Source: Candidatus Latescibacterota bacterium (GTDB lineage Bacteria > Latescibacterota > UBA2968). From it: a stretch of DNA of 64,000 nucleotides. Of the stretch, positions 21,196 through 44,452 are shown piece by piece. The stretch is taken from contig OZ242195.1 of the NCBI GenBank assembly GCA_965205975.1, positions 5,056,001-5,120,000 on the forward strand, given 5' to 3'. The position numbers and the translations under genes are program-made. Under the pieces are notes generated by a model. It searched no databases. It was not told the DNA's origin and saw only the letters and a list, made by a program, of their open reading frames with translations. Each line of letters opens with the position of its first letter. Within the stretch, counting starts at the first letter, position 1.

Positions 21196-21218
21196 ATAGG
21201 TGAGAGAAAGGAATCACG

Positions 21219-22031: not shown

Positions 22032-22042
22032 GCAGAGGAGTA

Positions 22043-22979: not shown

Positions 22980-23528
22980 TTGATCTCCTTGCCCAATTGC
23001 ATAAAATCCGAAGCCCGGTTTTGCGAGCGCTGTGGGACTTTGCTGGTTGTAAAAGCAGTTGAAGATCGGGAGAGGCCTTGTTGTCCGGCGTGTGGATTTG
23101 TGGTTTATCTCGACCCCAAGGTCGCGGCCGGAGTTATTGTCACTCTCGATGGTGGCGTTGTCTTGCTCAAGCGCAATATTGAACCCGGGTTTGGCAAGTG
23201 GGTGTTCCCTGGCGGATATGTGGATGCGGGCGAGCCAACCGATGTCGCGGCGGTACGCGAGACCCGCGAGGAAGTGGGGTTAGAGGTTGAGATCGGCGAG
23301 TTGCTCGGCGTGTTGTCTTATGAAGGGGAACGGGTGGTGCTGATTGTTTATACTGGACGGGTTGTGGGCGGAAAGTTGGAAGGCAATTTTGAATCGCAGG
23401 CTGTAGCTACATTTGCTCCTCGGGATATTCCCTGGAATGATCTGGCTTTTGATACGACCAGAGAGGCATTGCAAATTTGGGTGGCACAGTATGGCGAAAT
23501 GTACGCAAAAGAAAGGTTATTATGCTGA
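22980..23528 (+). CDS. NUDIX hydrolase with an N-terminal zinc ribbon
   Basis: CERCG...CPACG; Nudix box GGYVDAGEPTDVAAVRETREEVG. Confidence 0.88.
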   Translation: MISLPNCIKSEARFCERCGTLLVVKAVEDRERPCCPACGFVVYLDPKVAAGVIVTLDGGVVLLKRNIEPGFGKWVFPGGYVDAGEPTDVAAVRETREEVGLEVEIGELLGVLSYEGERVVLIVYTGRVVGGKLEGNFESQAVATFAPRDIPWNDLAFDTTREALQIWVAQYGEMYAKERLLC

Positions 23529-24433: not shown

Positions 24434-24441
24434 GAGATCAC

Positions 24442-25578: not shown

Positions 25579-25587
25579 GGGGATGTT

Positions 25588-26679
25588 ATGGCTGGTCAAG
25601 ATGTTTTTCAAGAGGCGTTGGCTCTGGTTTTACAGGGCGAAAAAGCCGCCTTATCGACAATTGTGTCGAGCAAGGGGTCTTTGCCGATGAGTAAAAAGGC
25701 CAAGATGCTCGTGCGTCCCGATGGCAAAATTATAGGTACGGTGGGCGGCGGATGTTTGGAAGCCGATGTGTGGGCCGAAGCCCGTCATGTGATGGAAACC
25801 GAAGCACCGACTTTGCAGAAGTTTATTTTGACGGAGAAACACGCGGGCGAAAATGGCCTCAATTGCGGCGGCAATGTCGAGATTTTTACCGAGCCTCTGT
25901 TGCCCGGTCGCGCAGATGATATGCTCGGCGATATTGCTCGGGTTCGCAAAGTGCGCGGTTCGGCCGTGTTGGCAACGCTGGTTTCGGGCGGCGATCAGGT
26001 GGGCGCGAAGTTATTGGTACATCCCGATGGCAGGACGGTGGGGAGCCTGGGCCATGACCTTGCCGAAGCATGTGTGAGGGAAGAGGTGGTGGCTTTTAAG
26101 GCGATTCCAGAGAGTTTGCTCAAAGTTATAAAGATCGGCTCGGAACCCGTTGTGGTCTTTTTGGAATCTATTTGTCCCGAGCCCACGCTGTTTTTGTTTG
26201 GTGGGGGGCATGTGTCCTTTGCCATCGCGCAGATCGCGCATTCGGTTGGGTTTCGGATTGTGGTTATTGACGACCGGCCTATGTTTGCCAACAAAGAGCG
26301 GTTTCCCATGGCGAGTGAAACGCTGACGCTGGAGATGGAGACGGCTTTTGATCATATAGTTATTGATGATTTGTCTTATGTGGTGGCTGTGACGCGCGGG
26401 CATCAGCACGACAAACCGATCATTGAGCAGGCGATTAATACCCAGGCGGCGTATGTCGGTATGATTGGCAGCCGTCGCAAGATCGCGCTGATGTGGAAAG
26501 AGTTTGAAGCCAAAGGTATTCTGAGAGAAAAATTGGATGCGGTTCACGCGCCGATTGGATTGGATATCGGTGCAGATACACCCGAAGAAATTGCCGTGAG
26601 TATTGTGTCAGAACTTATTCAGGTGCGCCGATCACAGGGAAAGCCCATTCATCAGGGTATGTCGCTGTCATCGGTGTGA
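25588..26679 (+). CDS. XdhC/CoxF-family molybdoenzyme maturation factor
   Basis: GTVGGGCLE, CGG, FGGGHV and HAPIGLDIGADTPEEIAVSI motifs. Confidence 0.9.
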   Translation: MAGQDVFQEALALVLQGEKAALSTIVSSKGSLPMSKKAKMLVRPDGKIIGTVGGGCLEADVWAEARHVMETEAPTLQKFILTEKHAGENGLNCGGNVEIFTEPLLPGRADDMLGDIARVRKVRGSAVLATLVSGGDQVGAKLLVHPDGRTVGSLGHDLAEACVREEVVAFKAIPESLLKVIKIGSEPVVVFLESICPEPTLFLFGGGHVSFAIAQIAHSVGFRIVVIDDRPMFANKERFPMASETLTLEMETAFDHIVIDDLSYVVAVTRGHQHDKPIIEQAINTQAAYVGMIGSRRKIALMWKEFEAKGILREKLDAVHAPIGLDIGADTPEEIAVSIVSELIQVRRSQGKPIHQGMSLSSV

Positions 26680-26818
26680 GGTAAATGACTTATTGTCGGG
26701 GGAGAACAAGGAGGTGACGCAAGCGACATAGTTGTAAACGATTTACGTGAGGAAGGATGAATGAGAGGCGCGTGTCTTTAAGTCTGGTTTTCGAAATTAT
26801 TTCTGAAGGGAGTTAACC

Positions 26819-29707
26819 ATGACAAGATGGATAATCGCACTTGTTGCGATGTCGTTTTTATCCGCATCGGCGATGGCCGGGGTGACGGGTAAAATTGCGG
26901 GTCAGATTGTTGACAAAGATGACGGTGGCGGATTGCCCGGTGCCAATGTGGTGGTTCTAGGGCTGCACAGTGTCTTTGGTGCGACATCAGATCCCGAAGG
27001 CAATTTTGTGATTTTGAATGTGCCGGCAGGCACTTATGACGTAAAATGCAGCTTTATCGGATATCGTGACGTGGTGCTTAAGGGCATCAAGGTGTTGCCC
27101 GATTTGACCACCGAAGTAGATTTTGTACTTACAGAACAAGTTCTGGAAGCCGAAGCTATCGAAGTGGTGGCGGAGCGCCCGCTGGTACAGAAAGACAAGA
27201 CCAGTTCAATGCGCCTCGTAACCAGCGAAGAACTCGAATATATGCCGGTTCGCGGGTATGCAGCGGCTACATCCTTGCAGGCGGGTGTGACGAGTCGGAA
27301 CGGCACACTTTATATACGCGGTGGGCGGTTTTCAGAAGTCGATTACATTGTTGATGGCGTGTCGCAGAAGGATTTGCAATTTGGCTCATCAACCACGACG
27401 CTGAGCAATGGTGCTATAGATCAGGTATCTGTGATTGTGGGTGGGTTTGAAGCGGAGTACGGGCGCGTGATGTCGGGCGTTGTCAAGGTGGTGACGCGCG
27501 AAGGCGGGCAGAACTATTCGGGGTCTGTGGAACATATCACCGATGAAATGAATGACCGCAGTTGGGCTGGTGCGCCCTCTTATGGGTATAACACTACCGA
27601 TGCGACATTTGGTGGTCCACTCATTCCCGGGACGAACGGGCCTTCGTTTTTTGTTTCTGGGGAACGCATTGATCGCCTTGACCGCAGCCCGCGCTGGGGG
27701 GTGGAAGTCCACGAGTGGGAAAAAGACCTGTTGTCACAGGAAGATTACGATTTGCTCAGCGAGGGCATCTTGCCGCATTATACGCTCGAGAGATGGGGCT
27801 GGCAGGGCAAGCTGTCGTATCGGTTGTCCGACGAAATCGGTTTGAAAGCCGGAATTGTAGGCTCAAAAACGGATCGTTTGAGCTATAGTCACACCTATCG
27901 CTATAATTTGCGACATGCGCCGCGTGTAAAAAGAGATAACTATTCGGCATTTGCCCGCGTGACCTATACGCTCGGTGCAAAGACCTTCTTCACCTTGCAA
28001 ACAAGCATGTTCGACCAGAATTTCAAGGGGGGTGATGGGGTTCATTTCGACAATTTGCACGACTATGCCCGTCCCCAGGGCAATCCGCGTTATGATGCGG
28101 AAAGTTTGTTTGCACGCGGCGATGTGGATTCCACCGAGATTATGCGGACAACGGAAACCATCAATGATCTCTCTATAACGTATTTTGAAGGCGATGAGGG
28201 GCGCATATATAATAGCTTTGAGCAAAGTAGTTCATTTTATCTTACGCCTATCGACTTTGATTTGACCAGCCAGATTAGCCGCAATCACCAGTTTAAGCTC
28301 GGTTTTGACGTGCAGATGCATCGGTTGCGTTATTATCGTCATCTGGTCCCCAGTTTGATCTTTCGCGGTCCATTTGTCAGCCCAGACGACAGGGGTGGCT
28401 TTCAGGATGTGAATCGCTATGGGTATGATTACGATTGGAATAAGCAGGTAATTGTGCCTCTGGACACGGCCCGCGACGCGCTAAAAGAGCCTATTTTGGC
28501 CTCTTTTTACGTGCAAGACAAGATGGAATACGACGGATTGATTATCAATGCGGGCATTCGGTACGATTATTTGAATGCGAGTACCGATGTGCTGGCCAAT
28601 GAAGCCGTGCCACTGGGTGGCGATTCCACGCTGGATCCGTCGGATCTGGCGGGCAACAGCGTGTATCACAAAATTAGCCCGCGCCTGGGGGTTGGGTTTC
28701 CCGTTACAGACAAGACCGTATTTCACATGAACTACGGTATTTTTTACCAGCAACCCAAGCTGGAAGACCTGTATGTTGGTCTGGATTATCTGGAATACAA
28801 AGCGCCTTTGGGGGGTTATTATTTCGCCTTTGGCAATCCGAATCTCAAACCGGAAAAAACCACGGCTTATGAAGTGGGTGTGGTACAGCAGGTGGGCGGT
28901 CATGCCAGCGTCGATGTCACTGCTTATTACAAAGCTGTGGAAAACCTCGTCCAGGTGACGACAATTCCGTCTGATCCCGCAGCCTTTGCCTCGTTCCGCA
29001 ACACCGACTACGGAACCATCAAGGGGCTGGACTTTGGTTTGTTGATGCGTCGTATAGGGCGCACGACAGCACGTCTGTCTTATTCTCTATCTTATGCGAC
29101 GGGCACGGGATCATCGCCACAAACCCAGCGGCGGATCGCCTGGACATTCCAACCCGGCGTGACCGAGCCGCCCAAAACGACTTCACCGCTCGACTTTGAT
29201 CAACGCCACAAAATTTCGGCATCTATCGACTATCGCTTTGTAGATAAAGATGGCCCGAGGTTCCTGGGTGGTCAGCCGCTGTCTAATGCTGGGATCAATG
29301 TGTTGTTCACTGCCGGGAGTGGGTTCCCCTATACCCCCACGTTTACGTATAATGAAGTGACTACAGGGGCTTCTTCGTCGCGTCCTTCGGGACCGGTGAA
29401 TTCCAGCTATGGTCCCTGGACGTTCAGGACCGATTTAAAGGCGAATAAGCGTTTCAAAATTGTAGGACTTCAGGGCGACATATACGTCTGGGTGCTCAAT
29501 TTGTTCAACCGCGCCAATGCAACCAGTCCCGTGTATTCGAGCACGGGCAGCCCAATGACTTCGGGCTGGTTGAATACAGGCGAAGGCCGCAAATTTGTGG
29601 AGCGCTTTGGTCAACTGGGTGAAGACAAATACAAGCTCAAAGAGAACAGCCCATTCAACTTTGGCACGCCGCGGCAGGTTCGCTTCGGACTCGCGCTCAG
29701 CTTCTAA
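26819..29707 (+). CDS. TonB-dependent receptor with an N-terminal carboxypeptidase-regulatory-like domain
   Basis: Signal peptide, GKIAGQIVD..LPGANV, plug IRGGR..YIVDG, GNPNLKPEKT; ends PRQVRFGLALSF. Confidence 0.9.
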   Translation: MTRWIIALVAMSFLSASAMAGVTGKIAGQIVDKDDGGGLPGANVVVLGLHSVFGATSDPEGNFVILNVPAGTYDVKCSFIGYRDVVLKGIKVLPDLTTEVDFVLTEQVLEAEAIEVVAERPLVQKDKTSSMRLVTSEELEYMPVRGYAAATSLQAGVTSRNGTLYIRGGRFSEVDYIVDGVSQKDLQFGSSTTTLSNGAIDQVSVIVGGFEAEYGRVMSGVVKVVTREGGQNYSGSVEHITDEMNDRSWAGAPSYGYNTTDATFGGPLIPGTNGPSFFVSGERIDRLDRSPRWGVEVHEWEKDLLSQEDYDLLSEGILPHYTLERWGWQGKLSYRLSDEIGLKAGIVGSKTDRLSYSHTYRYNLRHAPRVKRDNYSAFARVTYTLGAKTFFTLQTSMFDQNFKGGDGVHFDNLHDYARPQGNPRYDAESLFARGDVDSTEIMRTTETINDLSITYFEGDEGRIYNSFEQSSSFYLTPIDFDLTSQISRNHQFKLGFDVQMHRLRYYRHLVPSLIFRGPFVSPDDRGGFQDVNRYGYDYDWNKQVIVPLDTARDALKEPILASFYVQDKMEYDGLIINAGIRYDYLNASTDVLANEAVPLGGDSTLDPSDLAGNSVYHKISPRLGVGFPVTDKTVFHMNYGIFYQQPKLEDLYVGLDYLEYKAPLGGYYFAFGNPNLKPEKTTAYEVGVVQQVGGHASVDVTAYYKAVENLVQVTTIPSDPAAFASFRNTDYGTIKGLDFGLLMRRIGRTTARLSYSLSYATGTGSSPQTQRRIAWTFQPGVTEPPKTTSPLDFDQRHKISASIDYRFVDKDGPRFLGGQPLSNAGINVLFTAGSGFPYTPTFTYNEVTTGASSSRPSGPVNSSYGPWTFRTDLKANKRFKIVGLQGDIYVWVLNLFNRANATSPVYSSTGSPMTSGWLNTGEGRKFVERFGQLGEDKYKLKENSPFNFGTPRQVRFGLALSF

Positions 29708-29722
29708 ATGGGAGATCAGGAC

Positions 29723-32700
29723 ATGAAAAGCTTTTTGAATATTTTGACACTAACTTTGATGAGCGTGAGCATGGCTGGCATTGCGCTGGCTGTATCGCCC
29801 TCGCAAAAGCCGCGATTGGGTAAAATTAGTACTGATCAATTCTTCGATGTGAACAATATCTCAATGAGAGTGACAAACCAGGGATCATTTGCCTTTGATC
29901 CCGCGACCGGGGGGCCGGGCCTTGAATTTCCCAAGGGTACGGGTAAAACCGCGGTCTATGCCGCCGGTCCGTGGATTGCGGGCAAGGTCAATGGCGAAAT
30001 CCGCGTGGCGATTGCCGAGTATTCATTTGAGTATGCGCCTGGGCCGATTTTGCCCGACGGCACACCTGCCGATCCGGAACCTGACCGCTATCGCGTGTAT
30101 AAGATCAACAGAGGCGATGGCTCGGAAAACCCGGATTACGCGCAGTGGCCGGTTGAAGACGGCGCGCCGGTCAATCCCGACGGCACGCCGATGGTCCTGG
30201 GCGATCAGACCTTATGGGCGGTGTATAACGATGCCGATCCCGGCGTTCACGCCAATATGCAGACCGCGCCTTTGGGTCTTGAAATACAGCAGACGACATT
30301 TGGGTTCGACCGCACAGGTCCGCTGGGCAATGTGGTGTTCGTCAAATTTTTGATTATCAACAAAGGTGGCAATACCATCGATAGCACTTATGTGTCGATT
30401 TGGTCTGATCCCGATCTGGGGCAGTTCGATAACGATCTGGTGGGCTGTGATGTGGAGACCAGCTTTGGGTTTTGCTATAACGGATCAAACGTAGATGCGC
30501 AGTATGGTTCTTCGCCTCCGGCCGTAGGATATGACTTTTTCAAGGGTCCGATTGGCGATGACGGTGTGGAATTGCCCATGACGTCGTTTAATAAATATAT
30601 CAATGGCACGGATCCTCGTACTGCATTAGAGACCTATAATTATATGAAAGGCCTTGACCCGGACGGTGGCGTGGCCGATCACACCGATCCAATTACGGGT
30701 CAGGTGAAGGCATTTATGGTCGATGGAGATCCGGTTACAGGTACGGGCTGGCTTGACGAAAACCCGGCTGACCGCCGCTTGATGCTCACGGCAGGGCCGT
30801 TTACCTTTGCGCCCGGCGATACGCAGGAAGTGGTGGGTGCCATTATTATAGGACAAGGTCAGGATCGTCTCACGTCGATTACGGCTGCACGTTTTAACGA
30901 TACATTTGCACAATCGGCTTTTGATGCCAATTTTGAATTGCCATCGCCCCCGCCCGCACCCAAAGTATCCGTGGGGGTAACGGGCGATCACCGGGGCAAT
31001 GGCAGAATTCAGTTGACCTGGGGTAATGACTCAGAAGTCGCTTCGGGCGATTATGCATTTGAAGGTTATAATGTGTACCAGGGCGAGTCGGTCGCTGGTC
31101 CCTGGCGGCGTCTTTTGACTTATGACGTGGTCAATGGTTCGGCCATTATTTTTGATAATGAGTTTGATGAAAGTGCCGGTGTGGTGGTCAACTCGCCCGT
31201 GCAATTTGGCGGCGACTCGGGTATTCGGCGCTTTATCGAACTTACCGAGGATAAAATTTCGGGCGGTAGGCTGGTGACGGGGAAAACCTATTATTTTGCA
31301 GTGACGGCCTATTCGTTGAATGAGAACAGGTCGCCCAGAACGCTCGAGACATCCATCACACCTCTGGCCGATGGACGCATGACGTTTAAGCCTCTTTCGG
31401 ATGAGATGATTCCGGCCAATGGCATTGTGCCGCGCGGCCCCACTGCGGGTACGCGATTCAATACCGTGGAGGTGGATAGTGTCGTAGAGCATACATCGGG
31501 TGTAAGCGATGGTATTGTGGCTGTGGAGGTGGTTGACGATACACGGGTTACGGGCGCGTCTTACGAAGTGCGCTTCCGCGATACCGAGGCCGGAACAGTG
31601 TGGGATCTGGTCAATCTATCGAGTGGTCAGGCCGTGCTTTCAGATATGGAGCAGCACGCAAATATAGATGATGCGATTACCAATCCGATTGTCGAGGGTT
31701 TGCTCGTGCGCGTCACCGGTCCTCCTCTCGGCATGAAAGATTGGGATATTCCATCGGGCGAGCGGTGGATAACCCCGGCGAATACCAGACCCGATTTGGC
31801 TGGTTTTTCTACTGAAGGCTTCGGAGGTGGGATAACGGGCGATGTTGCCCATAGTTGGTTTGGTCCCACGAGCGTGTCGCCTTCGCAGTTGGTCAATGTG
31901 GAATTGCGATTTACGAATGTGATTGAAGATGATGGCGAAGATCAGTACAAACCCCTTGATCTGACAAATTCCAATGTGTCGTGGGGATATCGGTATTTGC
32001 GCGCCGCGAACAGACCTGCACCCGCTCCCGATGAACTAACCCTGTCCAAAGTGCCTTATGACTGGAGTGATTACATAGTCAATACAGAAGGTCCGGGTGT
32101 TTATGTGTATCAGGACCGGAGGCCTATTGCTCTGTCGGCATGGGATGTCGAAAATAATCGGCGCCTCGAAGTGGGTTGGCTGGAAAACAATCTGGCCAGC
32201 GGCCTGGTCAATGGGGCCTGGGGCCCGCCATTTTACGAAGATGTACCCCATACATTTGTCGCCCGCGAGTGGCTGTTCATTTTTGATCGGGATTATACCG
32301 AGCGAGATGATGATTCCAATTTGGCGGAGTTGTCTCAGGGCTTGATCAACGATGCGCCGGCACCGCCCATTATGTATATCCTTTTTGTTAATCGCCGCGC
32401 GCTAGATCGGTTCCCGCAGGATGGCGATTCGTTTTTGATGATCGTCAATAAAATCAATACTCCCGACGATGTGTTTTCATTTAGCACGCAGGGGATTCTC
32501 CGCGGTGATCAAGAGATGGCGGTGGAGGATTTGACAAAAATTCTGGCGGTGCCCAATCCGTATCTGGGGCGTTCGTCTTATGAATTTAGCTCTCTTGCAC
32601 GCCAGATGCGTTTTACCAATCTTCCCGCGCAATGCACGATCCGAATTTTCAGTCTGTCGGGCGATCTGGTGCGAACGATTGAGCACAACAACGGTCTGTC

Positions 32701-32845
32701 GTTTGATACCTGGGATCTGAAAACAGATCAGGGCGTGCTGGTTGCCAGCGGCATTTATATCGCGCATTTTGACGCGCCAAATATCGGTACGCATTTTATC
32801 AAGTGCGCGGTGTTCATGGAAGCTGAGACGCTGAACTCATTTTAA
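29723..32845 (+). CDS. Large secreted protein with a T9SS/FlgD-like C-terminal domain (cargo 1)
   Basis: Signal peptide; FN3-like segment; C-terminal VPNPY...FTNLP...IRIFSLSGDLVRTI...WDL...SGIY. Confidence 0.7.
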   Translation: MKSFLNILTLTLMSVSMAGIALAVSPSQKPRLGKISTDQFFDVNNISMRVTNQGSFAFDPATGGPGLEFPKGTGKTAVYAAGPWIAGKVNGEIRVAIAEYSFEYAPGPILPDGTPADPEPDRYRVYKINRGDGSENPDYAQWPVEDGAPVNPDGTPMVLGDQTLWAVYNDADPGVHANMQTAPLGLEIQQTTFGFDRTGPLGNVVFVKFLIINKGGNTIDSTYVSIWSDPDLGQFDNDLVGCDVETSFGFCYNGSNVDAQYGSSPPAVGYDFFKGPIGDDGVELPMTSFNKYINGTDPRTALETYNYMKGLDPDGGVADHTDPITGQVKAFMVDGDPVTGTGWLDENPADRRLMLTAGPFTFAPGDTQEVVGAIIIGQGQDRLTSITAARFNDTFAQSAFDANFELPSPPPAPKVSVGVTGDHRGNGRIQLTWGNDSEVASGDYAFEGYNVYQGESVAGPWRRLLTYDVVNGSAIIFDNEFDESAGVVVNSPVQFGGDSGIRRFIELTEDKISGGRLVTGKTYYFAVTAYSLNENRSPRTLETSITPLADGRMTFKPLSDEMIPANGIVPRGPTAGTRFNTVEVDSVVEHTSGVSDGIVAVEVVDDTRVTGASYEVRFRDTEAGTVWDLVNLSSGQAVLSDMEQHANIDDAITNPIVEGLLVRVTGPPLGMKDWDIPSGERWITPANTRPDLAGFSTEGFGGGITGDVAHSWFGPTSVSPSQLVNVELRFTNVIEDDGEDQYKPLDLTNSNVSWGYRYLRAANRPAPAPDELTLSKVPYDWSDYIVNTEGPGVYVYQDRRPIALSAWDVENNRRLEVGWLENNLASGLVNGAWGPPFYEDVPHTFVAREWLFIFDRDYTERDDDSNLAELSQGLINDAPAPPIMYILFVNRRALDRFPQDGDSFLMIVNKINTPDDVFSFSTQGILRGDQEMAVEDLTKILAVPNPYLGRSSYEFSSLARQMRFTNLPAQCTIRIFSLSGDLVRTIEHNNGLSFDTWDLKTDQGVLVASGIYIAHFDAPNIGTHFIKCAVFMEAETLNSF

Positions 32846-32871
32846 CGAACCGCTGAATGGAGGAATAACTT

Positions 32872-33927
32872 ATGTTCAGGCAGATGATTTTTCTGTTTGC
32901 CGCGCTGGCATTGATCGCTCAGGATGCCCGTGCAGGCGATGAGAGCCGCATCGGCACAGCTGCGGCACAAGAGTTGCGCATTCCAATTGGTTCGCGCGGT
33001 ACAGCACTTGGGGGCGCCATACTGGCTCATGTAAAAGGCGCAGAGGCATTGCAGTGGAATCCCTCGGGATTGGTATTTGGAATGCATAAGCGCGAAGCCG
33101 TGTTTTCATATCTGGATTATATCGCGGATATGAATGTGAATTATTTTGCGATTACTACACGTCTAAGGGATGATATTTCGGTGGGGATCAGTGCCCGCGT
33201 GTTTGCGGTGGGCGATATTGTTGTGACGACCGAGGAATCGCCCGAAGGCACGGGTGAGATACTTTCGCCGAGGTTTTCGTGTGTGACATTTACGTATTCG
33301 CAATTGTTGACAGATCGCGTGTCGTTTGGCACCACGATTAAATATATCCACGAGGCGATTAAGCGAGAGGTGGCCAATGGTCTGGCATTTGACTTTGGGT
33401 TTCAGTACAAAACCGCGCTAAAAGGTTTGACGCTGGGTATTGCCATGCGAAACTATGGTCCAGACATGCGGTTTGATGGTCCGGATCTGGATCGGGTGGT
33501 GAAATTGCAAGACGCGGTTCCAGAGGCTGATCCCCAAGCCGGGTCGCGCACTTTCCGCACGTCGCTGGCCGCCGCCGAGTTGCCCACGTCCATAGAAATT
33601 GGTTTTTCCTATAATTTCTATGAAGACGCGCTGGGCAAAGCTATTTTTTCTGCGACCTTCCGCAATAATAATCTGGCAACTGATGAGTATCAGGCTGGCG
33701 TTGAGTATTCGATGAAGCAAATTCTTCAGTTGCGCGGAGGGTATGTGACATCTCCAACGGGCGATGCCCTGCCCAACGGGTTTAATAAGGAGTATATTCT
33801 GGGCCCGACGTTTGGATTTGGTCTCAATGTGCCCATGGGAAATATGGCTTTTCAAGTGGATTATGCCTATGGCAGAACCGAGTACTTTCAGGATAATCAC
33901 TGGGTGACTGTGGGGCTTGGGTTCTGA
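32872..33927 (+). CDS. PorV/PorQ-like (UPF0164) outer membrane beta-barrel
   Basis: LRIPIGSRGTALG...WNPSGL motif; ends GLGF. Confidence 0.8.
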   Translation: MFRQMIFLFAALALIAQDARAGDESRIGTAAAQELRIPIGSRGTALGGAILAHVKGAEALQWNPSGLVFGMHKREAVFSYLDYIADMNVNYFAITTRLRDDISVGISARVFAVGDIVVTTEESPEGTGEILSPRFSCVTFTYSQLLTDRVSFGTTIKYIHEAIKREVANGLAFDFGFQYKTALKGLTLGIAMRNYGPDMRFDGPDLDRVVKLQDAVPEADPQAGSRTFRTSLAAAELPTSIEIGFSYNFYEDALGKAIFSATFRNNNLATDEYQAGVEYSMKQILQLRGGYVTSPTGDALPNGFNKEYILGPTFGFGLNVPMGNMAFQVDYAYGRTEYFQDNHWVTVGLGF

Positions 33928-33950
33928 GAAGTGCGTCCTGCGAGGCAAGA

Positions 33951-33995
33951 AATAAAAAAGCTCAGAAATCATTGCGATCTCTGAGCTTTTTTATT
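33951..33995. terminator. Bidirectional intrinsic terminator
   Basis: AATAAAAAAGCTCAGA...TCTGAGCTTTTTTATT between convergent genes. Confidence 0.88.
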
Positions 33996-34018
33996 TGAGG
34001 GGTGATAGGTGTCTTCCC

Positions 34019-35068
34019 CTATTGAAGCATTTTGCAATCTTCATCTTTTACGTTACAACTTGAGTTGTTGTAATATTCTTTGAGCTTGCGCTGGAGGGTG
34101 CGAAGGCTAATGCCCAGCCTTTTGGCCGCATGTGTGCGGTTGCCATTAACGCAGTTCAGGGTGTAGTCTATGATGAGTTTTTCAACGGTGTGTAGGGATA
34201 GTCCTTCGAGCATGCTCAAATCGATGTTCACGGCATTTGAATCCTCGCGCTGAGGCGTATAAATATCGGAGGGCAGATCAGTCGGTAATATGGTGTCTCT
34301 TTTGACCATAACGGCGAGACGTTCGAGAATATTTTTGAGTTCGCGCACGTTGCCTGGCCATGAATAGGTCATGAGATACAGGATCGTCTCGGGAGCGAGT
34401 TCTTTAGGTGCGAGGTCGTTGTCCTGAGCAAAGTTTTTGAGAAAATTGGTTGCCATTGCGGGGATGTCTTCGGGATGTAGCCGCAAAGGGGGCATATCAA
34501 TGTGAAGGACATTGAGGCGATAGTAGAGATCTTCGCGGAATGAGCCATTGGCAACGGCTTTTTTGAGGTCGATATTTGTGGCGGCAATAATCCGCACATC
34601 GATGTCGATGGGGTCTGTACTGCCCACGCGCATTATCTGCTGGCTTTCCAGAACGCGCAACCACTTGGCCTGTACGTCAAGGCCCAGGTCGCCGATTTCA
34701 TCGAGAAATAAGGTGCCGCGATGTGCTGCCTCAAATACGCCCTGTCGGGTCGTGGTCGCACTGGTAAAAGCCCCTTTGATATGGCCGAAGAGATGGCTTT
34801 CGGTCAGTTCGCGGGGAATTGCAGCACAATTTACAGTAATAAAAGGATGAGCGGCTCTGGAGCCGATGTCGTGGAGTGTTTTTGCAGCCAGTTCTTTGCC
34901 TGTACCACTTTCTCCTGTGATGAGCACAGTCGTCTTAAAAGGAGCCAGGTATTGAATCTGGTCTCTGATTTTCGCTATGCATGTCGATGCACCTTGAAGC
35001 AGGTGTTCTGTTTTGTCCTTTTCGTTCTGCTCATCTCTGGGTTCGGTAATCAGTATCTGTTTTTGCAT
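34019..35068 (-). CDS. Sigma-54 enhancer-binding protein with no N-terminal sensory domain (AAA+ plus Fis HTH)
   Basis: GESGTGKE, GAFTSA, LFLDEIG, FREDLYYRL, WPGNVREL and GNRTHAAKRLGISLRTLQRKL. Confidence 0.9.
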   Translation of the reverse strand: MQKQILITEPRDEQNEKDKTEHLLQGASTCIAKIRDQIQYLAPFKTTVLITGESGTGKELAAKTLHDIGSRAAHPFITVNCAAIPRELTESHLFGHIKGAFTSATTTRQGVFEAAHRGTLFLDEIGDLGLDVQAKWLRVLESQQIMRVGSTDPIDIDVRIIAATNIDLKKAVANGSFREDLYYRLNVLHIDMPPLRLHPEDIPAMATNFLKNFAQDNDLAPKELAPETILYLMTYSWPGNVRELKNILERLAVMVKRDTILPTDLPSDIYTPQREDSNAVNIDLSMLEGLSLHTVEKLIIDYTLNCVNGNRTHAAKRLGISLRTLQRKLKEYYNNSSCNVKDEDCKMLQ

Positions 35069-35248
35069 AGTCCTCCCATCTGTTAGAGATAGGATTTTGA
35101 CGGATTTTTTAGCTATTACTCTCTTTCTATTAGACTATCAGATGTACGCTTAGTTCCGCATTGGATTGTTAAAATTTGTAATCCGAAAATTTGTACCTGA
35201 GCATTGAGGCGCGATCTTTTTTTGATCGTGTCTTTTTTATTTTGCAGT

Positions 35249-35283
35249 GCGACACTATGACGCACCCGGCGACATTTTGACGC
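35249..35283. promoter_or_regulatory. Tandem enhancer (UAS) sites GCGACA-N3-TGACGC
   Basis: gcgacactatgacgc at 35249 and gcgacattttgacgc at 35269, ~290 bp upstream of a -24/-12 promoter. Confidence 0.65.
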
Positions 35284-35430
35284 TGTTAGCGCGGTTGATT
35301 TTTACTGTTTTGTAAAAATAAAAATAATTTTTACGCTCAAGACAGTGTATAGAGTTGACTTAAAAACCCGTGAGTAATTGCTCAGATATTTTGATAGACT
35401 TTTGCTAATTTCATGGATGATTTGTCTATA

Positions 35431-35443
35431 AATCAATGAGTTA
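35431..35443 (+). promoter_or_regulatory. IHF-binding consensus
   Basis: AATCAATGAGTTA matches WATCAA-N4-TTR; lies between the UAS and the sigma-54 promoter. Confidence 0.6.
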
Positions 35444-35562
35444 GGCATATATAAAAAAGATCTATGTGTATCGAAAAACGCCAGGGCAAAAAGATATTTC
35501 ACATTTGCGCCCTGGGCGATTGAAAAAAATTAAGTGAATCCCAGTGCTCTTAAAGCAAGAAC

Positions 35563-35578
35563 TGGCACTCATTTTGCT
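35563..35578 (+). promoter_or_regulatory. Sigma-54 -24/-12 promoter
   Basis: TGGCACTCATTTTGCT (GG-N10-GC). Confidence 0.85.
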
Positions 35579-35820
35579 TAAGGTATGACTGATGTTTGAT
35601 GACATCTTTGCTACCAGGCGAGCACTGCTATGGAGAAGTGCTGACCTTTAGCAAAATCGTGTGAGGGGGGAGACGCACCCCCCTCACATATTAAGCATTG
35701 AGAACATGAGTAGAGATTGAAAAGTCTATACTGAAAGGAGGGTACGGGGAAATAGAAAATGCGCTGGGGTAATTGTAGAAGAAGTCGATCGTAAACACAT
35801 TTCACAAAGGAGCAGTATCC

Positions 35821-38481
35821 ATGTCCAAAAAGCTCTGGTTTTACGCCTCCGGATTTTTCGCCGGAGTTGGCATGTGCCTGGCGGGTCTGGTCACACAGGC
35901 TCAGGCTCAATGGCCCGGCAATGCCAGAATCTCGATGTCCCGGGGTCAAATCGGTCACACGCTCCACAATCCGGGCATGACGGGAAAGAAAGATAACACG
36001 ACAAAGCTGGCACAGTCTTCGTTTTCGTATCCTCAGGGCCGCAATATCAAGGTGTATTCGGGCGGTTCTGAGCGCGAAGGCTGGAATGCCAAGTCAAATA
36101 CAGGTGGTGAAGGCTTCTGGGTGCTTTCCAATACGGGTGGCAGCCCCCACGGTACGTATGCAGGTCCGCGTATTACGTCTTCAGACCTTGTTGGTCGTGC
36201 CCACGATATGACGCAGATGCCCGAAGCCTATGTAGGCGTTGTAGAAGATGAGAATTGGGCAATGGCGATTCGCAGAGATAGTGGTGCGGACGCGCCCAAT
36301 ATCGCGGGATCGACGGTTGCAGACCGCCTGACCAACTGGTGGCCGAGTGCTCACGGTATTTCCAGCCCAACCCCTGGGACAAATAGGGCTGTTGTTGTCT
36401 GGAACTTCCGTTTTGGTCGCTACAACAGCAATGAGCCTTTTGCCAATCGCATTGGTTCTGGAGAATTCCCGCAGTACAGTGCGCCTTCGTGGGTGGAATC
36501 GCTGTCTGAGGATGATTTTCCCGAGATGATCGGTATTCAAGAAGGCGGTTCTTCTGCCACGGGTCTGGAGTGGACGCGCAAGTGGTTTTCCACGGCACAT
36601 CCCGATCACGATGAGTATTTTGTCGTTGACAACGAAGTGGTGAACAATTCGGGTTCGACGGCTGAAGGTGTGTATATCACCTTTGCCAACCGATTCCACG
36701 CGGGTCAGGCATCGGGCTGGCGGGGTTCGACCTCGTGGAATCACGCTTTCGATTGGACGCGCGATGATTATTATCGCAATACATTGGCAGCCAATTACCT
36801 CAACGGCGTCAGCCGTGGGGATTACACCTCTGCGCTTGGCAGATCTGCTGGTTTGCAGCGCGGTGTTGATCTTGCCAATGACGGCCATTTTATGACGTAT
36901 TACCACGATGGGGACTCCGATCATATTACCAATTTGATCAATGATATAGGCGATCAGTATCGCTATGCGATTGCCAAAGAGCGCTATACTCGCGAACAGA
37001 CCTGGGTGCGCGAGGGCATGATGCAGCACGCTCAGTATTTTGGTCTGGGCACTGTGGATGCCTTCCCGCCGTTTATGCGCTATGGCGGTGTGGATGATGA
37101 GATGTATGTGGCACCGCACGACAATCCGGCTACAGGGCACGATGAGAGCATGCAACAGCCCGCTTCGGTGCTCTTCCACGGCTATCGCGGTACGAATGAT
37201 TTTGACTATCCCTCGCCAGACCGTGCGGGCGATGCTCAGATTTACGACGCGGTTGCCAATGGCGGCTATACTGCTGAAAATGACACGCCTGGGCATTACT
37301 CAACGCTGGTATCTTATGGTCCCTACACGCTGGCACCAGGTGAGAAGGCCAAAGTGGTGGTCGCCTATGTGGCGGGATTAGCAGCAGATCACGCCAAGTA
37401 TGACGATTACAAGAAGTATGCCATGCCCTTCAACCTGGGGTGGATGAACCACTACGGTGGCAGGGGATCTGAGGCTACAGAGTTGGCAGATCGCCAGCCG
37501 GATATACCATTAGGCGAAGATGTGCTGTTCGATCACTTTGAGAATGCGATTCAGTGGTATAACTGGGGTTATGATCTTCCCAACCAGCCGCCGAATACCA
37601 AGGTGGCGTGGGATTCCAACCTTCAGGGTAAGACGCAGATTCGGTGGAGTGTCTTTGGCGAAGAGGCAATGGATCCAGATTATTCTGGCGCCCAGGCACA
37701 GGATTTGCGCGGGTATCGCATCTATCGCTCGTCTGTAGAGTATCAGGGCGAGTGGGAGTATGTGACGGAGTTTTCATTCGAGGATGCGCGTGCGGGCAAT
37801 TTGCCCACGGGTGTTTCGTATGATCCTTCTCGTACGTGGACAACGGTGAAGAGCGGTTCCTGGCCAACGGGTATTCCGCTGCTGACGAATCAGTACGTTG
37901 ATGCTGGTGTGCACGGTGGTCTCAATCCCGCTGCTGGTCCTGAGATTCCCGGCACATATCTGTTTGACGATCAAAACACAAACGCAGGCTTCCCCAACTG
38001 GTATAGTGTGCGTATGTATGACTCTGGCCACGGTGATTGGAATGGCGTGAGTAGCGTTGATGTCCTTGAAGCCTCGCAGAGCACCTCTCTGGGTTCTGTG
38101 TATGGTTCTCGCACGGGTATTGTTCCCGTGGTTCCTGGTGCAGCCGTGTTTGATCGCCTCGAAGAGCAGGTTCGCGTGGTTCCCAATCCGTTCAAGGTGG
38201 ATAGCGATTTACATACGTACAACCGCCAGCAGAATATGCGGTTTACGAATCTGCCGGGTCGCTGTCAGATCGACCTTTACGATGTGACGGGTCAGCGAAT
38301 CTGGACCTTCTACAATCAGGATCCTCTGAAGGGCGAAGTGACTTATATCCAGCTTGCCGAGAATCGTCCGTCTAACTTTGGTGAGGCGATGTTCCCTGGC
38401 ATATACTTCTGGAAAGTCACGTCTTTGATGCCGGGATCAGAAGGCGTAACACAGACCGGCACTTTCGTGATCATCAAGTAA
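35821..38481 (+). CDS. Large secreted protein with a T9SS/FlgD-like C-terminal domain (cargo 2, paralog of cargo 1)
   Basis: Signal peptide; GPYTLAPGE, LPNQPP, GYRIYR and VVPNPF...FTNLP...PGIY motifs; strong RBS. Confidence 0.7.
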   Translation: MSKKLWFYASGFFAGVGMCLAGLVTQAQAQWPGNARISMSRGQIGHTLHNPGMTGKKDNTTKLAQSSFSYPQGRNIKVYSGGSEREGWNAKSNTGGEGFWVLSNTGGSPHGTYAGPRITSSDLVGRAHDMTQMPEAYVGVVEDENWAMAIRRDSGADAPNIAGSTVADRLTNWWPSAHGISSPTPGTNRAVVVWNFRFGRYNSNEPFANRIGSGEFPQYSAPSWVESLSEDDFPEMIGIQEGGSSATGLEWTRKWFSTAHPDHDEYFVVDNEVVNNSGSTAEGVYITFANRFHAGQASGWRGSTSWNHAFDWTRDDYYRNTLAANYLNGVSRGDYTSALGRSAGLQRGVDLANDGHFMTYYHDGDSDHITNLINDIGDQYRYAIAKERYTREQTWVREGMMQHAQYFGLGTVDAFPPFMRYGGVDDEMYVAPHDNPATGHDESMQQPASVLFHGYRGTNDFDYPSPDRAGDAQIYDAVANGGYTAENDTPGHYSTLVSYGPYTLAPGEKAKVVVAYVAGLAADHAKYDDYKKYAMPFNLGWMNHYGGRGSEATELADRQPDIPLGEDVLFDHFENAIQWYNWGYDLPNQPPNTKVAWDSNLQGKTQIRWSVFGEEAMDPDYSGAQAQDLRGYRIYRSSVEYQGEWEYVTEFSFEDARAGNLPTGVSYDPSRTWTTVKSGSWPTGIPLLTNQYVDAGVHGGLNPAAGPEIPGTYLFDDQNTNAGFPNWYSVRMYDSGHGDWNGVSSVDVLEASQSTSLGSVYGSRTGIVPVVPGAAVFDRLEEQVRVVPNPFKVDSDLHTYNRQQNMRFTNLPGRCQIDLYDVTGQRIWTFYNQDPLKGEVTYIQLAENRPSNFGEAMFPGIYFWKVTSLMPGSEGVTQTGTFVIIK

Positions 38482-38517
38482 GGCGCGAAGCGTCAGACAT
38501 AAAAAAGGAGAAAGACA

Positions 38518-39534
38518 ATGTTTAAGAAAGCACTGCTCTTCGGTCTGGCTGTTGCGCTTGCCCTGCCGATGTATGCACAGGCTCAGGAAGAGCGGCCGAC
38601 TCAGGATTCATTAGGACCTTTTCCCGTGGATAGGACGCGCGTGCCTCCTGAAACGGATCTGATTAAGTATGCTCGCGTTACGACGACTTCTTATGGATTC
38701 TTGAAGCTGACGGGCAATGCGCGCTCAGCAGGTATGGGCGATGCGTATTCGTCTGTTGGCAATGATCTGTCGGCTGTGTTTTACAACCCTGCTGGCGCAA
38801 CGCAGATTGAGCGCTACGCGCTGACAGCTTCTTACCTGAAGTGGATTGTGGGGTCTTCAATGGGGACGTTTGCCATTGGTGCCAAGACGAATGTGGCGAC
38901 CTTTGCAGTCAACTTTGCGTATTTTACCACAGATGAATTTGAAGAGACCACCTCATCTCAACCCGGCGGCACGGGTCGCATGGCCACAGCAGGCGACATG
39001 GCTGTTGGTCTGACCATTGCCAAGCAGGTGACAGATAAGTTGAGTGTGGGTGGTAATCTGCGCTGGGTTCAGGAAGACCTGGATTTGCAGTCGTATTCGT
39101 CTTATGACATAGATTTTGGTACGCTCTTTTACACGGGCTTCCATTCCACGCGTCTGGGTATGTCGATGCGCAACTTGGGCGGCGACCAGGACGTGATAGG
39201 TCAGAAGGCGCGTTTCCCGATGGTATTCAACCTGTCGGGTGCTGCTGAAGTCTATGGCAATCTGGGTGATCCGCTGTCAGTCACAGTGGCAGTTGAACAG
39301 ATGTTCTTCACAGACTCGATCAACCGTTATCACTTTGGCGCGGAAGCATGGGTACAGAACATGCTGGCGTTGCGTGGTGGTTACAAGATCGGTTATGACT
39401 CCGAGTCGTGGACAGTGGGTGCTGGCTTGCGTCAGAAGTTAGGCGATCAGAGTGTGGGTGTGGATGTATCGTATTCAAGGGCTGAGGCACTTGATGAATA
39501 TCCCATTCGCGTTTCTGTTGGCGTTGGCTTCTAA
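38518..39534 (+). CDS. PorV/PorQ-like (UPF0164) outer membrane beta-barrel
   Basis: FLKLTGNARSAGMGDAY...FYNPAG motif; ends GVGF. Confidence 0.85.
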   Translation: MFKKALLFGLAVALALPMYAQAQEERPTQDSLGPFPVDRTRVPPETDLIKYARVTTTSYGFLKLTGNARSAGMGDAYSSVGNDLSAVFYNPAGATQIERYALTASYLKWIVGSSMGTFAIGAKTNVATFAVNFAYFTTDEFEETTSSQPGGTGRMATAGDMAVGLTIAKQVTDKLSVGGNLRWVQEDLDLQSYSSYDIDFGTLFYTGFHSTRLGMSMRNLGGDQDVIGQKARFPMVFNLSGAAEVYGNLGDPLSVTVAVEQMFFTDSINRYHFGAEAWVQNMLALRGGYKIGYDSESWTVGAGLRQKLGDQSVGVDVSYSRAEALDEYPIRVSVGVGF

Positions 39535-39558
39535 GAGAGCTTTTCCCACCAGATACAC

Positions 39559-39594
39559 AAAGGGCTGCGGTCGTAAGATCGCAGCCCTTTTTTT
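39559..39594 (+). terminator. Intrinsic terminator
   Basis: AAAGGGCTGCG...CGCAGCCCTTTTTTT. Confidence 0.88.
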
Positions 39595-39656
39595 GATCGC
39601 GGATTTTCGCGGATTTTTGGATTTCGCTGATGAAAGGCGAAAAAACACGCGTTCAG

Positions 39657-39693
39657 CGGTGTATTTAACCATCTGGAATGGTTTCTTTTACCA
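39657..39693. promoter_or_regulatory. Tandem YGGT-N7-ACCA palindromes (putative PspF-type UAS)
   Basis: cggtgtatttaacca and tggtttcttttacca, 22 bp apart, ~80-110 bp upstream of the -24 box. Confidence 0.5.
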
Positions 39694-39769
39694 ATATCAG
39701 GTGGTTTTTTTGTGCCTTAAAAATATTTATTTGTATAAAAAACAATAAGATAGAATCTGAAGGATATTT

Positions 39770-39785
39770 TGGCACGGATATTGCA
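39770..39785 (+). promoter_or_regulatory. Sigma-54 -24/-12 promoter of pspA
   Basis: TGGCACGGATATTGCA. Confidence 0.88.
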
Positions 39786-39831
39786 TAGAGATAGATGTGA
39801 TCAATAACCAAAAATCGAAAGGAGATATTCC

Positions 39832-40494
39832 ATGGGTACTTTTTCAAGAATAAGCAATGTGGTCCGCGCTGAGGTTGACGATGTTCTGAATAAGATAGAG
39901 GATCCAAAGAAGATGGTGCGGCAGATGGTTCTGGATATGGAGGATGCGCTGGATGATGCGGTGGTTGCCGTGGCACAGGCGATGGCAAGCGAGAAGTTGC
40001 TGGCGCGTCGGATTGCTCAGAAACGGGAAGAGTCGGCTTTGTGGGCGCGCAAGGCAGAGGATGCTATGGATGCTGGTGAGGAGGAATTGGCGCGCAAGGC
40101 ACTGGTTCAGAAGGTGGCGGTTGATGAAGCGGTCAATACGCTGCAGAAAGCGCGGGGGGAAGCGGAAGAGGTGACGGAGACGCTGAAGCGGAGACTCGCA
40201 GAACTGAAGGCGAAGTTGGCGTCTGCCCGCGCGCAACAAAGCACGCTGGCGATTCGCAAACAGGTGGTGGTGCAGGAGATGCGACAAGATGCGCGTGTAG
40301 AAGCTTATGATCGGTTTGTTCGAGATGTGGCGCGCGAGGAAGCGGCGGCTGAGATTTATGCGGAGATGGCAGACGATGCACAGTTGCAAGAAGAGTTTGA
40401 TCAACTGGAGCGAAAGCAGCGCGTCGAGGCTGAGATGCGGGTGTTGAAGGAGAAAGTCAAACAGAGCGCAAGCCAGAATGATGAAATGGTTTAA
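39832..40494 (+). CDS. pspA: PspA/IM30 family protein
   Basis: MGTFSRISNVVRA, EDPKKMVRQMVLDME and GEEELARKAL motifs; coiled coil. Confidence 0.88.
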   Translation: MGTFSRISNVVRAEVDDVLNKIEDPKKMVRQMVLDMEDALDDAVVAVAQAMASEKLLARRIAQKREESALWARKAEDAMDAGEEELARKALVQKVAVDEAVNTLQKARGEAEEVTETLKRRLAELKAKLASARAQQSTLAIRKQVVVQEMRQDARVEAYDRFVRDVAREEAAAEIYAEMADDAQLQEEFDQLERKQRVEAEMRVLKEKVKQSASQNDEMV

Positions 40495-40568: not shown

Positions 40569-41561
40569 CTATGTATTGAGATCTACTTCCTTAAACATCG
40601 GTGGCAGGGAAGCACCGTCAATCGCTTTATATTCCACTGCAGTATGGGGATACGCAAAGCCGAGGCGGTCGCTATTTGCAAATGCCTCCATAATTTTTGC
40701 GACAATTTCGGTTGATATCTTTTGTCGCTCTACGGCAATTGACTGATACCGCAAGCGCATCATAACTCCCGAATCAAAAAACTCCGCGCGCACCTCGGGT
40801 TCTTTTCCCGTCTCCTCTACAATTGTTCCCGTCACTTCCCGCGCACAAGTAATCAGTGTCTTCTCCGCCAATTTGTAATCCGAATCGTAGGATATCCTTA
40901 CGGGTACCTCATCCAGAATATATTTCGTCTCTTGAGACACGGCGTAATTGATCACCATCTGATCGAATAACACCGCATTGGGAATCAAAATGCCGCGGTT
41001 AGAAGACTCTTCACCGCCAATTGTACCGCCGACCTCACCCAGCAAAACATGCGTTGGTGAAATTTCCAAAACATCGCCCCGCACCCCCTGAATAATAATG
41101 CGATCCCCAATTTTAAAAGGCCGCTTAATCATCACCATCAACCATGCGGCCACGCCCGTTACTGGCCGCTGAAGGGACCAGCCCAAAACCATACCCACAA
41201 AAGCAACCGTCAGCCCCATTGCTGCCAGAGATCCCGACATACTCACAATGACAAAAAGAATACCAACCAGCATAAACGAATACCGCCACATCGTCAAAAA
41301 CTGCCGAATTTGTGCATCCGTGCGATGATGTTCCTCCATTGCGAGAATGATCAATCTCTTCGATATCTTATAGGCAAATAGCAACACAATCAATATCACA
41401 ACCGCATATAAAATGCCGACTATGGACTCTCCCAGCGTCTCCGACATAGACAGCTTGATATTTCGCACATAATCAAATGGCCTGGCCCGCGTCGCAACTG
41501 TCTGCAATGTATCCTGCGCGGCTTGTAATGTGTCCTGCACGACCTTCAATGTATCCGACAT
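40569..41561 (-). CDS. MscS-family mechanosensitive channel
   Basis: KRPFKIGDRI and IPNAVL motifs; C-terminal FAYPH. Confidence 0.85.
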   Translation of the reverse strand: MSDTLKVVQDTLQAAQDTLQTVATRARPFDYVRNIKLSMSETLGESIVGILYAVVILIVLLFAYKISKRLIILAMEEHHRTDAQIRQFLTMWRYSFMLVGILFVIVSMSGSLAAMGLTVAFVGMVLGWSLQRPVTGVAAWLMVMIKRPFKIGDRIIIQGVRGDVLEISPTHVLLGEVGGTIGGEESSNRGILIPNAVLFDQMVINYAVSQETKYILDEVPVRISYDSDYKLAEKTLITCAREVTGTIVEETGKEPEVRAEFFDSGVMMRLRYQSIAVERQKISTEIVAKIMEAFANSDRLGFAYPHTAVEYKAIDGASLPPMFKEVDLNT

Positions 41562-41566
41562 AATCT

Positions 41567-42457: not shown

Positions 42458-42459
42458 AC

Positions 42460-44436: not shown

Positions 44437-44452
44437 ACAGCCACCTTGTCAA

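Follow-up and report, generated by a model that had tools for sequence, protein, structure and literature searches.

In type IX secretion (T9SS), a cargo protein's C-terminal domain (CTD) binds the loops of PorV inside SprA, and its release requires the motor (PMC10994853). The tails of PorU and PorZ stay uncleaved on PorV and PorQ, and it has been hypothesized that cognate PorV-like barrels shield tails from cleavage (PMC10202324). For type B CTDs, cognate shuttles encoded directly downstream of the cargo have been proven, while a single PorV, according to the same source, serves every type A CTD (PMC12618676). PorV is a member of the FadL fold family (PMC12578637), and BamG anchors a surface protein beside BamA (PMC12578637, PMC12611786). 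With regard to the Latescibacterota, in a search by term, PMC12993501 mentions neither T9SS nor TonB nor PorV, and PMC4454575 brings up TonB solely for B12 and iron.

Here we analyze a 64,000-nucleotide stretch (the window) of the genome of a Candidatus Latescibacterota bacterium (positions 5,056,001 to 5,120,000 of contig OZ242195.1, assembly GCA_965205975.1), in which two putatively secreted cargo proteins, C1 and C2, are each followed by the gene for a PorV-like barrel, V1 and V2, respectively. An initial annotation had read these as two paralogous cargo-barrel modules, one of them tied to a TonB-dependent receptor. We find that the receptor is an integral third member and that the actual unit is a triad of receptor, cargo and barrel, which we are inclined to regard as a device for the capture and import of a nutrient.

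Receptor-cargo-barrel triads within the genome and across phyla

The genome (one contig, 5.56 Mb, 98% complete; G000 below, with the genomes of relatives also numbered G and individual loci L) contains 15 PorV-family genes over the family cut-off, 12 of which lie directly behind a cargo of the C1/C2 family. Eleven of these 12 cargos lie in turn directly behind a TonB receptor of a single clade, resulting in 11 receptor-cargo-barrel triads, and all 11 receptors of that clade have an adjoining cargo. The two modules of the window thus account for two of the 12 cargo-barrel pairs. Searching the genome with a profile of the 12 cargo tails recovered no thirteenth above 21 bits. The classical type A CTD model TIGR04183 passes its cut-off at 12 other places in the genome; while each of the 12 cargos bearing the variant tail is followed by a barrel, just one of 13 proteins with a classical tail has a PorV-family gene within 6 kb. 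SusD is represented in this genome by one gene, situated behind an unrelated receptor, as against the 11 triads, and does not exceed one match per genome across 31 genomes. The five genes in the window, whose reading frames, lengths and four ordered pairs of shared cargo motifs agree with the initial annotation, are as follows:

26819-29707, plus strand: TonB-dependent receptor, 962 aa, with Pfam PF00593, PF07715 and PF13620 over cut-off
29708-32845, plus strand: cargo C1, 1045 aa, or 1040 aa from the second methionine (probable start 29723)
32872-33927, plus strand: barrel V1, 351 aa, PorV/PorQ family (NF033709)
35821-38481, plus strand: cargo C2, 886 aa, with signal peptide, head, FN3-like domain and variant CTD, and no insert domain
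38518-39534, plus strand: barrel V2, 338 aa, PorV/PorQ family, with a phmmer score equal to that of its twin at 3.027 Mb

The receptor displays a signal peptide, a carboxypeptidase-regulatory-like N-terminal domain, a plug and a barrel, and it matches the SusC/RagA model TIGR04056 in its N-terminal part only, at 47 bits against a cut-off of 368. Both barrels score well over the cut-off of 90 bits of the PorV/PorQ family model NF033709 (V1 169.8, V2 153.1 bits), as expected from the annotation of each cargo as preceding its own PorV-like barrel.

We then examined the conservation of this arrangement beyond the genome. Full-length homologues of C1 at about 40% identity occur in Latescibacterota, Eisenbacteria and Zixibacteria. 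Among the best 79 of at least 497 genome stretches matching the C1 locus, and counting those loci where the contig permits a verdict, the receptor lies directly upstream of the C1 orthologue in 74 of 76 and the barrel directly downstream in 69 of 71, with the triad order being found in Latescibacterota, Eisenbacteria, Zixibacteria and Ignavibacteria. The two exceptions among the C1 orthologues end in a classical CTD and in a dockerin-like repeat, respectively, and no barrel of their own accompanies three other paralogues that lack the variant tail (L052, L059, L111); hence, the barrel follows the tail rather than the head.

A second clade of cargos, of about 700 aa, was surveyed in metagenomes with a nine-sequence alignment as the query, the same scan with a single-protein query having returned no relatives among 19 candidates. 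In the best 80 of 287 loci, some of them redundant, a receptor lies upstream in 60 of 63 evaluable cases and a barrel downstream in 70 of 73. Of the misses, two are insertions, one separating cargo from barrel and another receptor from cargo; the others are a pair with no receptor upstream, a cargo lacking a barrel and a lone cargo. The pairing is therefore conserved in related genomes, and the trees of the components are likewise congruent: the tree distances of receptor, cargo and barrel correlate across the 11 paralogous triads (rho 0.82, 0.78 and 0.85; p<0.001) and, to a lesser degree, across orthologous triads (rho 0.61, 0.63 and 0.53; 46 of 56 triads, 10 near-duplicates having been dropped). 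This congruence and the cross-phylum recurrence, together with the one-to-one pairing in the genome and the PorV-like character of the barrels, favor the earlier suggestion of a dedicated barrel for each cargo as far as the pairing goes; that V1 is dedicated to C1 as its anchor or shuttle would be the natural extension. As a separate observation, G010 and G006 carry, upstream of the receptor, a partial duplicate of C1 (L052:2517-4796 and L059:1864-4242); it has lost the FN3 part and the tail, ends in dockerin/EF-hand-like repeats and is accompanied by no barrel.

Further components recur around the triads. An outer-membrane protein of 230-270 aa is encoded upstream of the receptor in six triads, with a PF13505 match in five, two of these over cut-off, and could possibly be a fourth subunit. 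These six loci are L006, L008, L009, L010, L011 and L012, the first five belonging to the C2-type clade. Genes for DUF6785/6784 proteins, which we take to be inner-membrane transporters (the literature searched holds no mention of DUF6785), lie within 5 kb of six of the 12 barrels, where 7.6% would be expected by chance (p 1e-4, the paralogues not being independent); 35 such membrane proteins are encoded in the genome, and those beside triads are at L003, L004, L005, L006, L009 and L012. GWxTD-domain and large TPR proteins recur beside the triads L006, L007, L011 and L012 and at 12 loci of other phyla, and across 149 loci the recurring neighbors are IPT/TIG, CTD, ASPIC/FG-GAP, TPR and GWxTD proteins.

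A model for the triad and its alternatives

Based on the above, we propose, as the somewhat better-supported interpretation, that the triad is a unit for nutrient capture and import. The cargo would be exported by Sec and then through SprA, and would leave SprA bound to its own PorV-family barrel, on which its tail would stay uncleaved as in the case of PorQ/PorZ. Its head, probably non-catalytic and ligand-binding, would stand as a lid beside the co-encoded receptor, as SusD does for SusC, with TonB-driven import proceeding through the receptor. The elements of this proposal differ in strength: secretion of the cargo is predicted, the binding of tail and barrel appears probable, and contact of the cargo with the receptor followed by uptake is a reasonable, less secure expectation. 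The role of a SusD substitute, suggested earlier for C1, would agree with the gene order and the scarcity of SusD.

The nature of the cargo head is central to this proposal. In pairwise BLASTP comparisons, C1 and C2 share the tail (31% identity over 55 aa, E 5e-7) and a strand of the form GP(F/Y)T.APG (E 2e-4), whereas a profile-profile comparison of the two families yields a match over 400 columns (probability 100, E 2.4e-41), indicating that the paralogy claimed in the annotation is real. No Pfam family was detected in either protein, and a sequence search of solved structures with C1 gave no match at E 1. We obtained AF2 models for both (pLDDT 88.9 and pTM 0.77 for C1; 82.9 and 0.89 for C2), which predict the same order of a head, an FN3-like domain and a seven-stranded tail (mature residues 918-1007 in C1 and 755-854 in C2), with an additional insert of about 340 aa between the FN3-like domain and the tail in C1 that is absent from C2. 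An atlas search with this insert (residues 585-930) returned unnamed clusters with a best score of 0.81, and the fold searches barely covered it. The C1 head (mature residues 10-380) is predicted to be a beta-supersandwich with a following linker helix; the C1 model best matches the N-domain of glucodextranase (Z 19.6, rmsd 3.1, 238 aligned) and the C2 model that of bacterial glucoamylase (Z 17.9, rmsd 3.2, 239 aligned), with the helical (alpha/alpha)6 catalytic barrel being absent from both models. By eye, both N-termini resemble signal peptides. A lipoprotein nature of the cargo was considered and rejected, as none of the 12 cargos of the genome has a lipobox and the cysteine in the leader of C2 is not kept in G018. 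The family is large, with 14,492 representatives at E 0.001, a figure inflated by matches to FN3 domains and CTDs alone, and 1,209 at 1e-30.

This fold also accommodates an alternative that we judge unlikely, though the strongest of those considered, namely that the cargo is a tethered enzyme, such as a hydrolase, lyase or epimerase, functioning as a SusG-like polymer cutter, with the barrel still acting as its anchor. Indeed, the head also matches GH174 fucanases (Z 14.8), a PL26 lyase (Z 14.2) and mutarotases (Z 13.2), and eleven Asp, Glu and Arg residues are invariant among 113 C1 homologues (E164, D206, D208, D215, D235, D274, D313, D322, D327, R328 and R329). However, the top matches are the N-domains of (alpha/alpha)6 enzymes, which are non-catalytic, and across the 11 paralogous cargos no acidic residue is invariant, with a handful nearly so; the lack of a Pfam family on C1 and C2 likewise speaks against an enzyme.

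Somewhat less likely still is a structural or signaling surface complex, in which the cargo would be an adhesin or scaffold, or the receptor a TonB-type barrel serving as a sensor, with no import of a nutrient. Such a role would sit well with the inconsistency of catabolic neighbors, the identity of about 43% among C1 orthologues across phyla of differing lifestyle, the clustering of variable positions between C2 and its twin, and the existence of cargo-barrel pairs without a receptor in cis. On the other hand, the plug and barrel of the receptor are intact, the copy number varies among relatives as in substrate-specific uptake loci (9-48 matched stretches per genus genome), and several triads have DUF6785 genes and a sodium:solute symporter as neighbors, all of which are better reconciled with import.

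The fate of the tail bears on a further alternative. A tail profile matches the PorU CTD among solved structures (E 7e-4), the best solved relatives being the CTDs of PorU and PorZ, and the C1 orthologues carry an extra C-terminal extension of the form E.L..F, in which E, E and L are invariant. At a candidate PorV-contact position, C1 and 87 of 126 family representatives have a lysine, which is probably the counterpart of the PorV-binding lysine in the last strand described in PMC10994853. As for the export machinery, no core T9SS gene is present among the 22 window proteins scanned, as had been noted from the outset, and the search for sprA in the remainder of the genome returned one gene over cut-off (G000:1640322-1646597; L001/L014); SprA is likewise over cut-off in 60 of 61 genomes of the phylum. 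GldL, GldM and GldN gave no match in the genome, as was also the case for the positive controls, and GldM is over cut-off in none of the 61 phylum genomes. A PorU-like protein of 1,903 aa (G000:2040336-2046047) scores 271.5 bits against a cut-off of 420. Its presence, together with the action of PorV as such a shuttle (PMC10994853), would allow the barrel to be a transient private shuttle, with the PorU-like protease cutting the tail and the cargo being released or attached to lipopolysaccharide. We consider this improbable in light of the resemblance of the tail to the uncleaved PorU and PorZ tails and the near-invariant extension in the C1 orthologues, and because one-to-one co-encoding suits carriers that act stoichiometrically, an argument made for the type B pairs in PMC12618676.

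With respect to the barrels themselves, neither reaches the equivalog models for PorV (NF033710, cut-off 250; V1 73.1, V2 56.4 bits) or PorQ (NF033711, cut-off 220; V1 85.4, V2 75.9 bits), and the best PorV candidate of the genome, at 2.748 Mb, likewise stays under the PorV cut-off at 160.6 bits. The BamG model NF053685 (cut-off 250) gives 19.6 bits for V1 and does not list V2, and the PorP/SprF model TIGR03519 gives 19.2 bits for V2 against a cut-off of 90.55. A profile of 58 V1 orthologues matches PorV among solved structures at E 8e-22 and TodX at E 0.002. That the barrels serve as channels of the FadL type through which hydrophobic solutes pass, linked to the cargo by a shared pathway and without a tail-barrel interface, as the membership of PorV in the FadL fold family (PMC12578637) and the weak TodX and PF03349 matches (V2 20 bits, cut-off 29.7; V1 no match at E 0.01) might suggest, is very improbable given that the FadL cut-off is missed, the PorV match is 19 orders of magnitude stronger and barrel presence tracks the variant tail instead of the head.

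Returning to nutrient capture and import, several observations weigh against this proposal. As the motor was not found, the release of the cargo from SprA is not accounted for. The type A CTD model TIGR04183 (cut-off 23) gives 17.8 bits for C1 and no match for C2, and none of nine further paralogous cargos exceeds the cut-off; in C2-type tails, the candidate contact position is occupied by T, M, L or A (T in C2) instead of the lysine. A catalytic role is conceivable for the invariant Asp, Glu and Arg residues in the heads of the C1 orthologues. Module 2, G018 (L149) and L197 provide cargo-barrel pairs that lack an upstream receptor, and a full-length cargo stands alone at L209. Neither module of the window has a transporter or hydrolase neighbor, DUF6785/6784 included, and the neighbors recurring in the 149 loci point to no substrate. 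The congruent trees and the gene order are explicable by linkage alone and are no proof of contact. Finally, the receptor of the operon from which module 2 was copied is frameshifted in this assembly.

The duplicated cargo-barrel pair under a sigma-54 promoter

The second module, comprising C2 and V2, is associated with the following additional features of the window:

33950-33996, no strand assigned: bidirectional terminator-like hairpin in the gap between V1 and the convergent activator gene, recognized from sequence and a self-inverted match
34019-35068, minus strand: sigma-54 activator, with Pfam PF00158 (AAA+) and PF02954 (HTH)
35563-35579, plus strand: sigma-54 -24/-12 promoter motif of module 2, TGGCAC-N5-TTGCT
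35660-35688, plus strand: 11-bp leader hairpin of module 2, recognized from its folding z-score and the sequences of relatives
35808-39593, plus strand: duplicated block with 95.2% DNA identity to G000:3026838-3030620, in opposite orientation
39559-39597, plus strand: intrinsic terminator downstream of V2, with a 14-pair stem and a T run, recognized by terminator scan

The initial annotation had described this module as driven by sigma-54 and lacking a receptor in its operon. Both descriptions agree with the promoter motif and the gene order; the module is not, however, a second, receptor-independent type of system. A receptor operon about 2 Mb away, with the order small barrel, receptor, cargo and barrel, is the source of the block 35808-39593, which is a recent duplicate of its cargo and barrel. 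At the module 1 site of 19 genus genomes, V1 leads straight to pspA in 11, the activator and sigma-54 motif are present in six (with C2 seen in five), and neither arrangement is found in two. Thus, the insertion is missing in 13 of the 19, and on this ground we rejected an ancient receptor-less type. G018 likewise has C2-V2 without a receptor upstream; the orthologues there (L149, G018:2737500-2750500) follow an open frame no shorter than 2,242 aa, which takes the place of the receptor.

The motif TGGCAC-N5-TTGCT lies 258 nt upstream of C2 and at the same place in five relatives with the insertion, and it precedes none of the 11 receptor starts nor the twin cargo; judging from this motif, sigma-54 control is confined to the inserted copy. 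The activator is present exclusively where module 2 has been inserted. Its AAA+ and HTH domains are over cut-off, and its loop reads GAFTSA (GAFTNA in G008), a variant of the GAFTGA motif of this protein family. In G012 and G014 it is a receiver-bearing response regulator, whereas in G000, G003, G004 and G008 the receiver has been lost by an in-frame deletion of about 348 nt (about 116 codons), as found by comparing window positions 34019-35068 with L152:1030-2374. By eye, the full receiver of G012 and G014 appears to have a His at the position expected for the phospho-accepting Asp. The GC-rich hairpin lies in a predicted leader of roughly 230 nt (leader z-score -3.55, with none of 200 shuffles as stable), has a constant AGACGCA loop and is preserved in G012 and G014 through two compensatory base-pair changes; it has no Rfam match, and it could act as a stabilizer, bind a protein or belong to a small RNA.

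C2 and its twin differ at 46 protein positions, all before residue 760 and with the variable positions clustered, and over the last 1.3 kb the two copies differ at 8 positions within this genome as against 61 between genomes. In the tree, the C2-V2 copies of one genome fall together (support of 1.0 in G008 and G004 and of 0.42 in G000). The near-identity of tail and barrel within a genome, alongside divergent heads and FN3 parts, indicates that gene conversion homogenizes the tail and barrel. In G004, G006 and G016, pspA is found behind the parent copy and not behind module 2, which suggests recombination between the two opposite-facing copies, resulting in a large inversion. In the window, pspA (39832-40494) directly follows module 2 and has its own sigma-54 motif (39770-39786). 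The frameshifted parent receptor (G000:3030849-3034123; L010:7849-11123) owes its state to two small indels about 90 nt apart, and its halves are in one frame in all 15 relatives' loci; the frameshift is either an assembly error or a recent lesion. We propose that module 2 would supply extra or variant heads to the 3.03 Mb receptor in trans.

RNA contigs of four runs from four studies cover both modules, and the runs containing the window stretch are mostly labelled sponge metagenome. An RNA contig of 8,168 nt joins C2-V2 to 4.5 kb of different upstream sequence, and the loose ends of contigs match the spacer of the parent, indicating that most C2-V2 RNA contigs derive from the parent operon; the sigma-54 leader is covered by one shallow contig. 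Contig depth is 15-35 times higher over C2-V2 than over the first triad in the four runs, a measure that is unfit for ranking genes and is not used here as evidence.

A broader reading, which we offer tentatively and hold to be rather doubtful as a whole, would combine these observations. FCB (Fibrobacteres-Chlorobi-Bacteroidetes) bacteria outside Bacteroidia may run a second, lipoprotein-free capture machine composed of a TonB receptor, a type IX-secreted lid, a private PorV-family barrel and, in many cases, a further small barrel plus a DUF6785 inner-membrane transporter, with export through SprA dispensing with the GldLM motor. The cargo-barrel units would be exchangeable lids, conversion holding the tail and barrel identical while the head diverges, such that a receptor could switch substrate under sigma-54.

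As for the remainder of the window, a terminator follows each barrel, as annotated; that behind V2 emerged from the scan, and the hairpin at 33950-33996, which has one stem mismatch and A6/T6 flanks, is missing from the terminator-scan list. Taken as a whole, the sigma-70 scan (20 vs 14.0) and the terminator scan (21 vs 15.4) came close to chance, and we therefore used single strong sites alone. No Rfam match was found over 26500-40000. Directly 5' of the receptor are coxD/coxE/xdhC-like genes (AAA, VWA_CoxE and XdhC; 23477-26679), which are kept in the genus, and a single RNA contig runs from xdhC to V1. A functional tie to these genes or to pspA was rejected: the synteny holds in the genus, yet they are not recurring neighbors elsewhere. 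Positions 12757-22729 encode a polyphosphate kinase and a phosphate uptake cluster of the pstS-C-A-B-phoU type, in which the permease at 17310-19550 has a predicted WD40-like domain, and the minus-strand cluster at 40569-47802 has, by eye, the look of three channels of the MscS type alongside two larger proteins associated with the membrane. Candidatus Latescibacterota sequences are the closest named relatives, at 96% identity.

Comparison with known systems

We found no description of the triad in the literature searched, although subscription journals and supplements could hold one. If the import proposal is correct, it would account for substrate capture in polymer-degrading FCB lineages that are nearly devoid of SusD (Latescibacterota, Eisenbacteria, Zixibacteria and Ignavibacteria) and would provide a function for a very large unnamed cargo family and for many PorV paralogues that are lumped together by annotation. 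One PorV for all type-A-like tails would cease to be the rule, and the tail-protection hypothesis set out in PMC10202324 would become directly testable on the 12 natural pairs of one genome.

The triad shares with two pairs in the attachment complex of Porphyromonas gingivalis, PorZ-PorQ and PorU-PorV, a PorV-family barrel and its cargo, whose CTD is retained in P. gingivalis (PMC10202324); the PorZ and PorU CTDs are the best matches of the triad tails, and the triad barrels belong to the PorV/PorQ family. In contrast to those pairs, the triad barrels stay below the equivalog cut-offs, number 12 per genome and are co-encoded with the cargo, in 11 cases with a receptor, and the triad cargo is not a sortase, nor is it a beta-propeller. 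The type B CTD and PorP/SprF pairs of Flavobacterium johnsoniae (PMC12618676) similarly have one carrier per cargo, directly downstream, with a probably uncleaved tail. The triad tail is, however, type-A-like, with seven predicted strands and no type B match at E 0.01, its barrel is of the PorV/PorQ and not the PorP/SprF family (19 bits vs 90.55), and the unit includes a TonB receptor. BamG-BamH offers a structural parallel, in that a FadL/PorV-fold barrel anchors a surface protein next to another, larger barrel (PMC12578637, PMC12611786); according to the same sources, BamH is a lipoprotein and the large barrel is BamA, and the triad barrels score at most 20 bits against the BamG cut-off of 250.

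The predicted head fold, including the linker helix, resembles the N-terminal beta-supersandwich of the GH15, GH65, GH94 and GH116 enzymes (Z 17-20), but no (alpha/alpha)6 barrel is present, an FN3-like domain and a CTD follow instead, and identity is about 10%. SusC/SusD (RagA/RagB) likewise combines a TonB receptor bearing a carboxypeptidase-regulatory-like domain with a partner encoded directly next to it, in many paralogous operons duplicated as units. The triad differs in that its receptor is not SusC (47 vs 368 bits), its partner has neither a lipobox nor a SusD Pfam family and is a predicted beta-protein, not a TPR-helical one, and a barrel would take the place of the lipid as anchor. 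By analogy, the triad would likely work as SusC/SusD and PorZ-PorQ do, yet by the models that define their members it belongs to neither.

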